A stretch of DNA of 35,884 nucleotides from Candidatus Altiarchaeota archaeon (GCA_043800705.1 JAZDMS010000015.1:1-35884), one strand, 5' to 3'. Numbered from the stretch's first letter, positions 24,053 to 31,769 are shown. A program made the numbers and translations. Notes: a model not told the origin generated them from the sequence alone.

Positions 24053-27000
24053 ATGAGGGTCTGCGTATCTGTTGGGCGGGCGACGCATTTATTCCTTGCC
24101 TTATTGGGTGTAGCGCTGTTGGCGTCCATGGTCTTCTCGCAGACCGAGTCCGATGCCACGGAAGTCGACCAGCAGACTAGTGTGGCTCCTGCGGCGGAGG
24201 CTCCCGCTCCGGAGTCTGTCGAGCCCGCGGCTGATACGCTCCCTCCAGAAGATGAGGCTACTGTTGACTCCCTGGAAGAAACGCCTGACGAGTCCTCCGA
24301 GGCTCAGTCTATGGAGCTTCTCGCTGGCGAGGAATCCTATACTCCAGTATCGTTCCAAGCGATACAACCGCAGACTGCCGTAAAACCTGATGGCTACTAT
24401 GAGACCGGCCTGTTCACCGGCGCTGCGACTTATGGGTATGGTTTGCCTGTTATGCCAGGCACGAACGGTCTTGCGCCTTCGTTCAGCCTCTCCTATAGCA
24501 GCCAGAACGCGTTGGAGCGCGGATGGGTGGGGAACGGGTGGAGCCTCGGGGACAACTTTGTCTCCCGGGACGTCAACGGCACCCTTACCGACTGGTCAGA
24601 CGACGAATACCAGTTGCACCTGAACGGAGCCAGATACGACCTCGTATACGTGGCCTCGGAAGGGCTCTTCCACACGAATCCGGAGTCTTACCTGTATGTA
24701 GAAATGAAGGCGGGAGCTCCGAACGAAGGCGGAAGATACTGGGTCGTCATGGGGAAAGACGGGGTAAAGTATCGGTTCGGTTATACTGGCAATAGCGAGC
24801 TATGGCGTAATACTACTGGCAAACCAATTACAAAGTCATATAGTACTACTTTATACAAGAACACTGTTGGTTGTGATAATACTCATGTGTTCAATGCGGG
24901 GACAGCTGGTTGGATAACCCAAAGCTCAGTAAGCACGACAAGTTGTCAGCCTTATGAAGATGCAGTATGTTCATCGGCTATAATCCCTATTGATCCTGCA
25001 CGTGCAACAGAACAAATTTGTCTCTCATCCCATTATGGTGAATCAGATTGTGATTCCCCCGGGCACTGTTCGACTGCAGCTGATTACAGTTTCCAATATA
25101 ACACGCCTGATAATAGAACATACCCTGTTAGTGTCCGTTGGAGCCTCGACGTAGTCGAAGACACTCATGGGAATAAAATCTATTATAACTATACTGAAAA
25201 CCCCGGCTCGTCTGATAAGGGATCGGTGTATCTGGCCAGGGTCGACTACAATAACGACCTCAGAAGGAGCATACAATTCGTCCTGGAGAATGACACAAAT
25301 CCGAGGATGAGGTATATCGGCGGCGCCAAGGTCGTAGCAGCAGAGAGGCTTAAAGAGATCCAGGAGAAATACGACGGCATTCTTGTCAGGAAGATACTTT
25401 TCAATTATTCCCAAAACGATCTCAAGACCGTCACCTACCTGAAGAGCGTCCAAATCTGCGGCTCAGATGGAACAACCTGCCTTCCGAAGACGGAGTTCGG
25501 GTACAGCCTCCCGGAGCCCGGATGGAACTATACGACTGACTTCGCACTCCCGTGCAGGTTCGTCTACGGATGCACTTTGGCGAACTTAAACGGAGACGCA
25601 CTCCCGGACCTAGTCCTGGCAAACCAAACCCATAAAAAAGCATGGCTCAACAACGGCACAGGTTTTGTCCAAAACAACTCGTGGCTCCCGTCAGAATCGG
25701 TCAGGATGGACGGCGACAGCGGCTTTGGCGTCCTGGACCTCAACGGCGACGGATACGACGACATACAAGGTCCGGACTATGGCTATCTCAACACCGGAAG
25801 CGGATGGTCGATAACATACGGGTGGAATCCGGCATGCGATTTCAGATCGACAACAGAATGCAGGTTCGTAGACCTAAACAACGATGGATATGTTGATGCG
25901 ATGACCACTGCGGGAGATACTCATCATGCATGGATAAACACAGGTTCGGGTTTTGTCCAAGACGACAGTTGGGCTCCGGACATCGGTGTCGGGTTCGGAA
26001 TCGACCCCGACTGGGGCGTAATCGACCTCAACGGCGACGGAAACGTCGATATTCTCGGCTCCCAGAAAATCATGAACACCGGATTAGACCTCGCATGGCT
26101 GGGGTACTCCTCCGACTGGAACACCACCTGCACCTTCAAAGGCGGAGACAAATGCAGATACGTCGACCTCGACAGCGACGGACTCGTAGATATAATGAAG
26201 GTCGACGGATACGGGCACGCATGGCTAAACAACGGCTCCGGATGGGTCGCAAACGACAACTGGGGAGCGGGCGTATTGAACTCCGACGACAAAACCAACA
26301 TCGCGGACATGAACGGCGACGGCCTCGTAGACATCAACGGCAGCCTCAAGAAAGGAGAGGCCCCGCACGCCCTCAAATGGGTGAAAAACAGCCTCGGAGG
26401 GAATCTGTCGATAAAGTACCGGAGGGCTCTAGGATTCAATACAACAATCGGCGGAAACCTAAACTATCCCCTATGGCTCGTGGACTCCGTAACAGCCGAC
26501 AACAAAATGTCCGGCGCCCATTCTTCGAACTCCTCGACGGCCTATTACTATGAGGGCGGATTACACGACTACCAGGACAAGGAATTCAGGGGCTTCTCGA
26601 AAGTAGTCCAAACCAGGACAGACGGGGGGAGGACCATCAGCCTCTTCCACCAGGATGACGGACGCAAAGGCCAGATATATGAAGAATCCGCGGAAGATTC
26701 TAGGGGGAACAAATACACGGTCTCGAAAAACAACATCAGCTCGTCTCAGACGAATGGCGTCTACCTATCTAAGCTCTTAGGCATTACTAATTATCTCTAC
26801 GACGGCGGAGTAGACCCGAAGACGTCCAAAGTCGAATACGACTATGACTCGTTAGGAAACGTCATCGCAACGAAATACCTCGGCGACACTGCCGTATCTG
26901 GCGACGAAAAGTTTTCCTATGCCGAATACGTATATAACCAATCCGCTCTGAAGCCGCCCATTCCAGGCTCTCCATCTGGCCAATGGTGGACTTTGGCGGA

Positions 27001-29528: not shown

Positions 29529-31769
29529 ATGGCTGAATTGATCCTCCTCAGGGGTCGTATATGGGTGTATTCAGCCATCGTCCTCCTCCTAATGGTTCCC
29601 GTAGCCTGGGCCAACGAACTAAGCCCGGAATGGGTGAGACCTGTTAGTGTGGTGGAGTCTTCGGGGGGTGTTCCTGGTTATGCTATTGATGGGAGTACTG
29701 GTTCGGAGTGGTATCATGGGTTGTCTACCGGGGTGCCTTATTGGGCTTTGTTTGTGGATTTGAATGCGACGTATAAGATCCATGGTGTTAGGATTTATTC
29801 GTCTGGGGGTGGTAATGGTCCTTGTGGTTTCCGCGGGTATGTGTGTAATTCTTCGTCGGTTTGCGGGAGTGGTGAGGATGTGCCTTTTAACTGGGGCAGC
29901 GGTTATGGGTGGTATTCATTTAGGCGGTCTTCTAATATCGGGAGCATGGTGAAGATGAATAATGGGAAGGTCGTCCATACTTCTAATCCGCAGGATTGTG
30001 GAGGTTATCATAGTCAGTACGCTGATCGTATGGGTTATTTCTTTGAGATTGAGGCGAATGTTTCTGCTTTCGGGCCGGGCATTTCCGGTTTCGCTGTCAA
30101 TCAGTCGACTATCCCTATGGGTCAGGCGGCTGTCGTGAACGTATCCGTAGCCAACAGCCTCCATACGTTCCCGATTAGTAAGGCTTGGTTCACAGTCGAC
30201 GGCAACGTCTCGAATGTGACCGGTGCAGCGGAAGGCGTCAACAGCATGTTATGGACGAATACTATGCTACCTCGCAGCCAGTATACGGTCGTCGGCTACG
30301 TCAACGACACCAAGAACCATATAACTGCGTCGACGCCTGTTACGGTCTTTATCGAGACTACTACGACGACGGTGACGACATCTACTACTACAACCTTGGC
30401 TTTGGGTCCTCAGAATTACGTAAACAACTACTCTTACGACGACAACGGCAACATGCTGGAAGACGAGAAATTCAAGTACGAATATAACGGCATGAATATG
30501 CTCAAAACCGTCAAAAACACCACAAACGATGCCATAATCGAGCAGTACTGGTACGGTCCCGATGGTCAGCGTATCAAGAAGGTCAGTTTCTTGGAGGACG
30601 GCAGCAACAGGACGACCTACTACGTTACTCCCTCATACGAGATCGAATACAACGAAACAGGAGCTAGAAAGGATACCAGATACGTTTTCGCCAATGGTGA
30701 AAGGATGGCGGAACTACACCAAAACGGCAGCAAAACATATTACCTGAACGATCACCTGGGGAGTTCTTCGGTCCTGGTAAACGAACTGGGAGAGCAGCTT
30801 GACAGGCTAACCTACTATCCGTACGGAGAGGTCAAAACTGGCGGAGACGAATCGAAGTACGGGTATAACAACAAAGAGTTGGATTCAACAGGGCTCAACT
30901 ACTACGGAGCACGATACTACAACCCCGAATTAAAGCGATGGACACAACCGGATACGATAATACCCAATCCCTATGATCCTCAGTCATTAAACAGATACTC
31001 CTATGTAAAAAATAATCCTGAAAAATATATTGACCCAACAGGACATTTTGCATTCCTCCCTATAGTAGCAGCTATGGGAATAGGTTTTATTGCAGGTGTA
31101 GCATCTTATGGTTTCAATCATATTGGGAAAGATGATTGGAGTTGGAGTGAAGCTGCAGGGTATGGGGTGGTCGGGGCTGCTGCTGGAGCAGCCATTTGCA
31201 TCGGTGCTGCTGTTGTCGTTGCTGCAGGTGCTGGTGCTGTAGTTGAGGCAGCTGGAGTTATTGCAGTAGGATTCATGGCAAATACTCTTCAAACAATGGG
31301 TGAAAAAACAATAGAACAAGAGGATCCTATACCTACAGATGATGAAAATTATGTGAACTTAGGCGCTTCGATAATTGGATTCAAGGCTGGAAAGGCAGTA
31401 ATTGCAGGAAGAGGAGTTACTGGTACTGGCTCCTCTTTCAGAAGATCACTCCCTTGGGTAGATAAACTATACACGGCCGTAAAAATGAACTCCGGCGGAA
31501 AAAATATTATTATCCATGTTACCTTTAAAGATGGCAGCAGGGGGACCTATAGGGTAACATCAGCAACTATCGATGAAGTTATCGATCAAATAGCAGATTC
31601 AGCCACTCAAGTATCAATTCAAGAGGGATATAGCACAGCTAAAAGAACAGAAATTTATCAACAACTTTCAGATGGTAATACTGAGCAAAATGGAGGATCA
31701 TCTAGTTCAGATGATGGGGATCGATCGATATATAAACCCTACTACCTTGGAGGTTATAGGAACATTTAA
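29529..31769 (+). CDS. Secreted RHS-core protein with discoidin-like and Ig-like N-terminal domains and a variable hydrophobic C-terminal (putative toxin) domain
   Basis: Own signal peptide. RHS-associated core motifs DHLGSS, YYPYG, YYGARYYNP and LNRYSYVKNNPEKYIDPTG. The sequence turns AT-rich around DPTG, and Gly/Ala-rich hydrophobic helices follow. Confidence 0.9.
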   Translation: MAELILLRGRIWVYSAIVLLLMVPVAWANELSPEWVRPVSVVESSGGVPGYAIDGSTGSEWYHGLSTGVPYWALFVDLNATYKIHGVRIYSSGGGNGPCGFRGYVCNSSSVCGSGEDVPFNWGSGYGWYSFRRSSNIGSMVKMNNGKVVHTSNPQDCGGYHSQYADRMGYFFEIEANVSAFGPGISGFAVNQSTIPMGQAAVVNVSVANSLHTFPISKAWFTVDGNVSNVTGAAEGVNSMLWTNTMLPRSQYTVVGYVNDTKNHITASTPVTVFIETTTTTVTTSTTTTLALGPQNYVNNYSYDDNGNMLEDEKFKYEYNGMNMLKTVKNTTNDAIIEQYWYGPDGQRIKKVSFLEDGSNRTTYYVTPSYEIEYNETGARKDTRYVFANGERMAELHQNGSKTYYLNDHLGSSSVLVNELGEQLDRLTYYPYGEVKTGGDESKYGYNNKELDSTGLNYYGARYYNPELKRWTQPDTIIPNPYDPQSLNRYSYVKNNPEKYIDPTGHFAFLPIVAAMGIGFIAGVASYGFNHIGKDDWSWSEAAGYGVVGAAAGAAICIGAAVVVAAGAGAVVEAAGVIAVGFMANTLQTMGEKTIEQEDPIPTDDENYVNLGASIIGFKAGKAVIAGRGVTGTGSSFRRSLPWVDKLYTAVKMNSGGKNIIIHVTFKDGSRGTYRVTSATIDEVIDQIADSATQVSIQEGYSTAKRTEIYQQLSDGNTEQNGGSSSSDDGDRSIYKPYYLGGYRNI

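Follow-up and report, generated by a model that had tools for sequence, protein, structure and literature searches.

The locus described here raises the question of whether two neighboring genes, each of which appears to carry its own export signal, can encode the two halves of one RHS toxin cocoon. It lies in a stretch of 35,884 nucleotides from a Candidatus Altiarchaeota archaeon (referred to as the window here; all coordinates are positions of the whole window), in which a gene for an RHS protein that ends without a core (gene 1) is followed by a gene that resumes the RHS repeats and supplies a core and a variable tip (gene 2). An earlier note on this DNA had proposed that a single RHS protein was split at a repeat junction in this archaeon. 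Judged from sequence comparison, the pair probably represents an RHS cocoon made of two chains that are both exported by Sec, with gene 1 contributing the shell and gene 2 an exchangeable plug. All signal-peptide calls were made only by visual inspection and from hydropathy. The features of the two genes are as follows, with the evidence for each in parentheses.

24053..29527, + strand: gene 1, core-less RHS shell with a predicted signal peptide, 1,824 amino acids (open reading frame [ORF], translation, Pfam)
24053..24139, + strand: predicted Sec signal peptide of gene 1, residues 1-29, cleavage between ...MVFS and Q (by eye; hydropathy segment 3-25)
26945..27508, + strand: Cys-rich insertion of ~188 amino acids, gene 1 residues ~965-1152 (BLASTP breaks against relatives; no Pfam match)
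27509..29266, + strand: RHS/YD-repeat part of gene 1, ending in PHAV (Pfam RHS_repeat; alignments to relatives)
29267..29524, + strand: gene 1 tail, 86 amino acids after PHAV (homologous to an insert of unsplit relatives; no Pfam family)
29516..29531, + strand: coupling junction, consisting of GGAGG, an 8-nt spacer holding the TAA of gene 1, and the ATG of gene 2 (sequence)
29529..31769, + strand: gene 2, plug protein with a predicted signal peptide, 746 amino acids (ORF, translation)
29529..29612, + strand: predicted Sec signal peptide of gene 2, residues 1-28, cleavage between ...VAWA and N (by eye; hydropathy 3-23)
29613..30422, + strand: discoidin-like and Ig-like region plus Thr linker of gene 2, residues ~29-298 (sub-threshold Pfam and ESM-Atlas leads; Thr run visible)
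30423..31046, + strand: mini-RHS of gene 2, last YD repeats and RHS core, residues 299-506 (PDB phmmer; invariant alignment columns)
31047..31766, + strand: variable C-terminal tip of gene 2, residues 507-746 (hydropathy; diverges after 31050 from the tip of a second plug copy described below)

Gene 1 is the sole copy in the 2.0-Mb genome, and its coordinates, translation, and Pfam profile agree with the SpvB, FG-GAP, and YD-repeat regions that the earlier note had read in it. The Pfam matches are SpvB (residues 122-188), FG-GAP_3 (512-571), TcdB_toxin_midN (748-861), and RHS_repeat (E 9.8e-30), so that the chain has the SpvB, propeller, TcdB_toxin_midN, and repeat composition of a TcB-type protein. 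Residues 1387-1731 match Rhs proteins in the PDB, and the PHAV motif occupies residues 1735-1738 (29255-29266). The Cys-rich stretch interrupts this homology: BLASTP matches stop at residues 962-965 and restart at residue 1153 at the earliest in five of six unsplit relatives, and in those with a continuous subject at the break, such as G042C11 (862 to 864), the stretch is extra in gene 1. Exceptions are G043C33, in which the matches overlap, and a single match of G034C33, which crosses the region at 28% identity. P0129, the nearest shell, also lacks the stretch.

Gene 2 begins 1 nt past the TAA of gene 1, in the +1 frame and with GGAGG 8 nt upstream of its ATG. Its N terminus reads MAELILLRGR, followed by a hydrophobic stretch and AWA ahead of N. 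The next ~245 residues are discoidin-like and Ig-like, as judged by a sub-threshold Pfam match to F5_F8_type_C (E 0.0022, 18.6 bits versus a cut-off of 28.2) and by ESM-Atlas leads to F5/8-type-C and PKD/Ig clusters (scores of 0.79-0.84, TM 0.43-0.56). A PDB sequence search with this N-terminal region returned no match at E up to 1, and we treat the assignment as a lead and not as proof. Thus, among the gene 2 domains named in the earlier note, the Thr linker and, by sequence and hydropathy, the predicted signal peptide stand, and the discoidin/Ig-like part stays at the level of leads. The RHS fold restarts at NNYSYDDNGNM (residue 299 on) and runs for ~210 residues to DPTGH (502-506), which bears out the reading that gene 2 resumes the repeats and brings the DPTG core and the tip; besides the translation, this is seen in the PDB alignment of residues 311-505. 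This segment aligns to TccC2 residues 475-663 (of 664), YenC2 593-689 (of 690), and RHS2 501-690 (phmmer), and it also matches the end of the TcdB2-TccC3 fusion, with E values of 1e-8 to 1e-11 across TcC RHS ends. The top PDB sequence match of gene 2 was 9on3_A, a 3,398-residue protein (SGS4), in which the alignment extends past the core into the start of the hydrophobic tip. The tip itself (240 residues) opens with Gly/Ala-rich hydrophobic segments at 504-529 and 542-584, followed by ~160 residues of no known family.

To see whether the two genes complement each other, we compared them with unsplit relatives. In a six-frame search, 14 of the 61 genomes of the window's phylum, its own among them, contained plug-like sequence, and six of these matches sit in open frames of 1,462 to 2,175 residues, i.e., in unsplit proteins. 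In BLASTP, each of the six matches gene 1 as far as its tail or through it, and gene 2 takes over at residues 299-303. In three of them the gene 1 match extends to residues 1819-1823, and 19, 22, and 48 residues remain ahead of the gene 2 match; the remaining three have 55 to 75 residues between the two matches. Past PHAV, all six carry the motif GSxPPxxGDWVISxxTSC (... L.L.G) that is also present in the gene 1 tail, and a multiple alignment agrees. Because the matching motif stands at the same spot in all six unsplit relatives, the tail is a conserved insert, located within the shell in this lineage, and gene 1 stops where the insert ends. The non-RHS tail of ~80 residues recorded in the earlier note therefore measures 86 residues and indeed has no Pfam match, but it is no oddity that arose after the split; its homology to the insert had been missed. 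In a genome of the same genus (G039), all that the search found of a plug was a broken remnant, interrupted by an internal TGA.

Taken together, gene 1 and gene 2 add up to a complete unsplit protein of ~2,100 to 2,200 residues with nothing missing. The alignments thus support the notion that they are complementary halves of one RHS fold, with the break exactly between PHAV and YxYDxNGN. That these two motifs follow each other within a few residues in contiguous RHS proteins had been stated in the earlier note and is what we see in the unsplit proteins P0028, L066, L072, and L118. A simple frameshift or read-through joining the two genes was rejected, given the +1 frame of gene 2 and the ~290 non-RHS residues, signal peptide included, that lie between the halves.

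In order to find out how far this arrangement extends, we scanned genome contigs with the shell C terminus and sorted the 77 nearest loci; the counts of intact shells and of plug types given here depend on simple rules that we set ourselves and on BLAST thresholds. Most of the shells at these loci are unsplit. Eight loci contain intact core-less shells of 1,525 to 2,484 residues, in which the RHS part stops after (P)HA(V/L)T and runs into non-RHS domains (CARDB, PA14, F5/8-type-C, TSP3, BACON, or Ig domains, according to Pfam). All eight have a plug gene with a hydrophobic, AxA-type N terminus just upstream on the same strand, at a distance of 52 to 981 bp in six cases and ~5 kb in one, with a 15-nt overlap in the last. 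These shells are labeled Patescibacteria (3), Desulfobacterota-type (3), Nitrospirae (1), and Methanosarcinales (1). Three further genome loci, with shell fragments only or at contig ends, were unscorable. Whole-genome searches of ten such genomes recovered a complete short plug ORF in eight and partial plug matches only in G070.

Metagenome sequences give the same picture. The best five among 80 metagenome plug loci are signal-peptide plugs of 415 to 507 residues. Three of these have 7.8 kb or more of DNA downstream of the plug, and all three have a gene 1-like shell there, at a distance of -24 to 412 bp. In these shells, homology to gene 1 ends at residues 1738-1741, i.e., at PHAV, with unrelated domains beyond. 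The predicted cleavage site of the short plugs lies 1 to 6 residues ahead of YxYDxNGN, and therefore the N terminus of the mature plug would be the very strand that follows PHAV in unsplit proteins. In protein searches, too, the closest relatives of the plug were short proteins with YxYDxNGN almost directly behind a signal peptide. A HMMER search of 1.84 billion representatives yielded 982 proteins at E up to 1e-30, of which we sorted the best 150 by crude rules. Among these 150 clusters, 98 are signal-peptide plugs with a median length of 437.5 residues, 10 have an N-terminal region of 120 to 600 residues (gene 2 included), 9 are long, 25 are fragments, and 8 are short with no signal peptide detected.

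Because the pair recurs at all eight intact core-less shells and at all three testable metagenome loci, these data support a functional link between shell and plug, and the window's locus is one member of a large, cross-domain class of core-less shells paired with signal-peptide plugs. The split that the earlier note had described in this archaeon is not peculiar to it, as the eight genome pairs, the three metagenome pairs, and the predominance of signal-peptide plugs among the best 150 clusters show. The note's idea of one RHS protein split at a repeat junction survives in the complementarity of the halves (19 to 75 residues between the matches) and not in the sense of a one-off fission. The split point that the note had proposed to look for elsewhere recurs in bacteria and archaea, yet we found no published description of it. 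The window has twists of its own, namely, the order of shell then plug, binding domains on the plug, the retained insert, and an orphan plug. Its F5/8-like and Ig-like domains sit on the plug side of the seam, whereas the decoration is on the shell side in the other pairs. Besides gene 2, N-terminal domains are found in the plugs L149, P0009, and P0011. At L149 (Methanosarcinales), the 918-residue plug ORF with a Cys-rich N-terminal domain overlaps by 15 nt the ORF of a 2,484-residue core-less shell, which continues after a HAP motif into He_PIG, Big_9, and PKD domains. In L030 and L034 (G042:C17), genes of 352 residues have the signal peptide joined later, inside the core region at ...YYYANNELVGRKD; by their sequence, these seem to be a second, shorter kind of signal-peptide core-and-tip gene.

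The nearest shell, P0129, shares 49% identity with gene 1 across residues 1171-1739; it lacks a core and has ...PHAVERTEEV as its C-terminal end. The nearest plugs, P0009 and P0011, consist of a signal peptide, Cys-rich repeats, a mini-RHS, and differing tips. Each of the three proteins lies on a contig of 67,453 bp, which is most likely the same one. To gain an idea about the history of the seam, we built a quick tree of 113 plug regions (IQ-TREE, LG+G4, SH-aLRT only, unrooted) from all unique tblastn matches that begin by plug residue 16 and extend to residue 210 or beyond (107 of 132 after deduplication) and six metagenome proteins; split and unsplit labels were set by rule and corrected by hand, and some rows labeled split outside the 45-row clade described next are orphans. 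The two plugs of the window group with P0009, P0010, and P0011 (5 rows, SH-aLRT 99), inside a clade of 45 rows (SH-aLRT 99) that holds 26 split and 19 unsplit forms and takes in unsplit forms of the window's phylum and of Methanosarcinaceae. Two unsplit proteins, L126 (Methylomirabilota) and L127 (Gammaproteobacteria), in which PHAV and the plug are separated by a large additional domain, fall within the split plugs of Patescibacteria and may be re-fusions. This quick unrooted tree thus suggests, without ordering the events, that the boundary behind PHAV was cut, rejoined, and decorated repeatedly.

Searching the genome with gene 2 revealed a second copy of it just downstream, which the earlier note had missed together with the putative immunity genes that lie at 31801-35144. 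The features concerned are as follows.

30170..30409, + strand: 240-bp block in gene 2, 97-100% identical to 32797-33036 of the orphan (windowed identity of a MAFFT alignment)
31801..32562, + strand: putative immunity gene 1 (P0005), a 253-residue multi-pass membrane protein (translation, four hydrophobic segments, GC content of ~0.36-0.38)
32630..34393, + strand: orphan plug, a 5'-truncated copy of gene 2, ORF at 32657-34393 (protein and DNA homology, translation)
34320..35144, + strand: putative immunity gene 2 (P0006), a membrane protein after the orphan (translation, two hydrophobic segments)

The orphan begins inside the discoidin-like part, without a signal peptide, and retains the Ig-like region, the Thr linker, the mini-RHS, and the core; its tip differs. 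At the protein level it is 64% identical to residues 157-744 of gene 2. At the DNA level, 30003-31049 and 32630-33676 are 82% alike, and the likeness is gone after the core (MAFFT alignment). The 240-bp block, which ends right where the mini-RHS starts, is likely a recombination or gene conversion arm. The earlier note had proposed an exchangeable plug, and the second, truncated plug with its different tip and near-identical arm supports this. P0005 has no Pfam family, and P0006, whose start is uncertain since its ORF overlaps the end of the orphan, has a weak DUF3810 match under the cut-off; neither for the tips nor for the putative immunity proteins was a Pfam family found beyond noise (E up to 5). 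The immunity role of P0005 and P0006, both encoded in low-GC DNA, is putative and suggested by their position and membrane character. Plug, immunity gene, orphan tip, and immunity gene reproduce the classic rhs layout, and the copied unit is the separate plug gene and not the end of the shell.

These observations can be combined into a mechanism in which genes 1 and 2 would encode the two chains of a single RHS toxin cocoon. The product of gene 1 would leave the cell through Sec and fold into most of the β-spiral shell, i.e., the TcB-like part, the FG-GAP propeller, the repeats up to PHAV, and a small surface insert. Gene 2 would be exported on its own signal peptide, with its mini-RHS of ~210 residues continuing the spiral from the strand past PHAV. 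The mature plug might dock by extending the sheet through its new N terminus, or it might stay near the shell by means of the discoidin/Ig domains and the shell insert. The core of gene 2 would then close the top of the cage and cut after DPTGH, and the hydrophobic tip could be kept soluble inside the cage until delivery, as described for Tse5 (PMC10684867). The discoidin/Ig-like domains, presumably binding modules, would lie outside the cage at the junction, and these outer domains of the seam, perhaps with the lectin-like product of the upstream gene P0003, might provide targeting. The downstream membrane proteins would probably protect the producer, and the orphan could swap in a new plug and tip by recombination in the shared Ig/Thr-linker arm, leaving the shell gene unaltered. 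In a conceivable variant, the plug would remain tethered to the membrane until captured by the shell.

Several points weigh against this reading. It would have two molecules enclose a tip outside the cell after both chains have crossed the membrane unfolded, and we know of no precedent for this. The hydrophobic segments of the tip (504-529 and 542-584) might arrest transfer in the Sec channel. The adjacency of the genes speaks for linkage and not for contact, and the signal peptides were called by eye and hydropathy. In addition, the window has shell then plug and all 11 other pairs the reverse; a lone plug of the same family (G042:C15) has no shell within ~5 kb downstream or 1.1 kb upstream; and in G064, which has a shell fragment only, the whole-genome search gave no plug match.

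A broader claim would be that two Sec-exported chains build RHS cocoons outside the cell in general, i.e., that ~440-residue signal-peptide plugs dock on core-less TcB-like shells and load and seal the toxin after export, across Patescibacteria, archaea, and Desulfobacterota- and Nitrospirae-type bacteria. We put this forward tentatively, as somewhat short of an even chance. Patescibacteria and archaea have single-membrane envelopes, and the Desulfobacterota- and Nitrospirae-type bacteria are diderm. If the claim is true, plugs could be mixed and matched not just by recombination but also as proteins, and the RHS fold would have in the PHAV boundary a natural seam that evolution can open and close again, with fissions, re-fusions, and domain insertions all mapping to it.

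The alternative that survives best is that the plug acts alone, as a Sec-secreted polymorphic toxin whose short RHS/core part serves as a self-cleaving release module, with the shell being a separate adhesin or an empty cage kept nearby for coregulation or by descent. The sheer size of the class of signal-peptide plugs would fit this, as would the existence of at least one plug with no shell nearby (G042:C15), the still shorter forms of G042:C17 with their signal peptide inside the core region, and the adhesion-type C-terminal domains that core-less shells bear themselves. We nevertheless consider it unlikely, since the two genes stand side by side at every intact core-less shell and every testable plug locus (8/8 and 3/3), across phyla and in both domains, and since the break always falls at the identical repeat boundary, with neither half duplicating or missing a strand. 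Moreover, in the structures of TcB-TcC and Rhs proteins, the last ~200 residues of the shell form an open strip of sheet with an inward plug and no stand-alone domain.

A second alternative is that the locus is decaying or rearranged, a once-unsplit gene having been broken by foreign DNA with one or both halves now nonfunctional. The lower GC content from ~21 kb on (0.43-0.55, then 0.30-0.43, versus ~0.6), the 5' truncation of the orphan, the gene order unlike that of the other pairs, and the broken remnant in the same-genus genome G039 would all agree with such a history. Both ORFs are, however, long and uninterrupted (1,824 and 746 residues), gene 2 opens with a well-formed predicted signal peptide behind GGAGG, and the nearest relatives (P0129 with P0009/P0011), like many further lineages, have retained the split, which speaks for selection; decay thus seems improbable to us. 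Finally, an assembly or sequencing artefact at the junction, conceivable in a metagenome-type assembly of 43 contigs with a ~240-bp near-identical repeat within the locus, is very improbable, since the repeat, being ~640 bp past the junction and within gene 2, cannot create the break, since the ~290 non-RHS residues that start with a signal peptide between the halves are no frameshift product, and since independent assemblies show the identical architecture.

How does a cocoon of two exported chains compare with known RHS systems? The closest parallel is the TcB-TcC pair of Tc toxins (TcdB2-TccC3 and YenB-YenC), which are made in the cytoplasm, where TcB and TcC assemble. There too, two chains build the RHS shell, the first with SpvB, propeller, and TcdB_midN parts and the second with the core and a variable tip. 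According to PMC11067744, TcB and TcC build one shell from two chains, TcC contributes ~680 residues of it, and one YenB pairs with three YenC proteins; a single shell chain can thus serve several tip-bearing chains, a further likeness to the locus studied here. According to PMC7861908, 97.2% of 2,528 TcC proteins are 851 to 1,050 residues long, and PMC10847048 describes the release of Tc toxins by cell lysis. Gene 2 does not hold a TcC-type RHS N-terminal domain of ~680 residues; it has only ~210 residues of RHS and core. Because it matches TccC2 at residues 475-663 only, while TcC brings ~680 residues, the break here lies ~470 residues nearer the C terminus than the TcB/TcC break, so that the plug consists of just the last repeats and the core. 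Unlike TcB and TcC, which assemble in the cytoplasm without Sec signals, both chains start in a signal-peptide-like manner, as judged from sequence, and so have predicted Sec signals; extra binding domains stand at the break, and the host is archaeal, in keeping with the ELP3 and diphthine-synthase-like genes of the window. A search of the archaeon's own genome for the TcA families PF18276 and PF03538 had no match, which is weak evidence, given that the genome is 87.6% complete and that control genomes were silent too. Within the window, the absence of VgrG, PAAR, and TcA that had been noticed before holds in Pfam scans of 16 large ORFs.

In its domain order, the locus resembles the unsplit toxins that Zhang et al. 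(2012) call the "TcdB/TcaC" class, which PMC3482391 describes as signal-peptide SpvB/propeller/RHS toxins and lists for Euryarchaeota: signal peptide, SpvB, integrin-like propeller, RHS repeats, core, and variable tip follow in the same sequence. We found such unsplit proteins in Methanosarcinaceae and in the window's own phylum. Those toxins are single polypeptides, in contrast to the present locus, in which gene 1 terminates at 29525-29527 and gene 2, an ORF with its own predicted signal peptide, opens at 29529, so that shell, core, and tip are not one chain. A YD-repeat shell and a DPxG-ended core before a variable tip are both present, the former in gene 1 and the latter in gene 2, and core and tip have their own gene with its own signal peptide. 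The window also has the defining elements of the pair class delineated here, i.e., a shell ending in (P)HA(V/L)T and an adjacent signal-peptide plug gene on the same strand. The orphan recalls rhs orphan tips, a concept outlined in PMC11067744, in being a downstream, 5'-truncated copy with a different tip, its own putative immunity gene, and a high-identity arm. The arm differs from theirs in being the Ig-like/Thr-linker part of a separate plug gene and not the RHS core of the main gene, and tip switching would therefore leave the shell gene untouched. With Tse5 of the Pseudomonas aeruginosa type VI secretion system, whose Rhs shell chaperones a membrane-inserting tip according to PMC10684867, gene 2 shares a hydrophobic, membrane-type tip that opens with Gly/Ala-rich hydrophobic segments. 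The two tips have no detectable sequence relation, and Tse5, delivered by type VI secretion, is one polypeptide.

Two-chain RHS shells (Tc) and unsplit RHS toxins with signal peptides were thus already known, and what appears new here is the later seam together with a predicted Sec signal on each chain. Our literature search of main texts found no account of mini-RHS plugs that have a signal peptide and partner a core-less shell, a prior mention being possible, and no paper containing both "Altiarchaeota" and "Rhs". As far as we have seen, the pair is common in sequence data and so far unnamed. To our knowledge, Tc toxins are the sole known case of an RHS cocoon made of two chains, and there both chains fold together in the cytoplasm. 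A seam elsewhere in the fold and an export signal on each chain raise the testable question of whether an RHS cage can close and load after export. With a constant shell, an adaptor of ~210 residues, and any tip, the pair is a small, modular system, and it occurs widely among bacteria and archaea that have not been cultured and whose means of antagonism are poorly understood. In addition, it points to the PHAV boundary as a place where the RHS fold is naturally split or takes up insertions, which helps in understanding how the cage is constructed. For annotation, many proteins of ~440 residues recorded as "RHS repeat-associated core domain" are probably one half of a pair.

The two genes belong to a tight string on the + strand that runs from 21526 to 35144, with P0003 ahead of gene 1 and gene 2 and the downstream genes behind them.

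21526..24051, + strand: P0003, a secreted protein of 841 residues (ORF list, translation; two Laminin_G_3 [ConA-like lectin] domains, Pfam E 1.3e-31)

Residues 7-27 of P0003 are hydrophobic in a hydropathy scan, and its end lies 1 nt from the start of gene 1. The same GTAAAATG (stop, one base, start) occurs at the junctions of P0003 with gene 1 (24046-24055) and of gene 1 with gene 2 (29522-29531), which suggests that the three genes are translationally coupled. BLASTP of P0003 against the genes upstream of four unsplit relatives gave no match at E 1e-3, and a conserved third partner in this position is thus not supported; any role of P0003 in the system is one that we infer from its position. 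The GC content of the window steps down at ~21000 and ~31000, from ~0.6 to 0.43-0.55 and then to 0.30-0.43, so that the RHS operon looks foreign relative to the rest of the contig, and the part with the orphan and the putative immunity genes still more so.

Just before the first drop, at 18593-20842 on the - strand, lies a fused gene for a chorismate-binding and a class IV aminotransferase domain (PabB-PabC-like). Further upstream, at 9319-17790, the + strand has three large ORFs of 797, 917, and 852 residues. Pfam finds thrombospondin type 3 repeats together with a C1 peptidase domain of the papain type in the first of these and a TSP_3 match below the threshold in the third. The window also encodes ELP3 and a diphthine-synthase-like gene.

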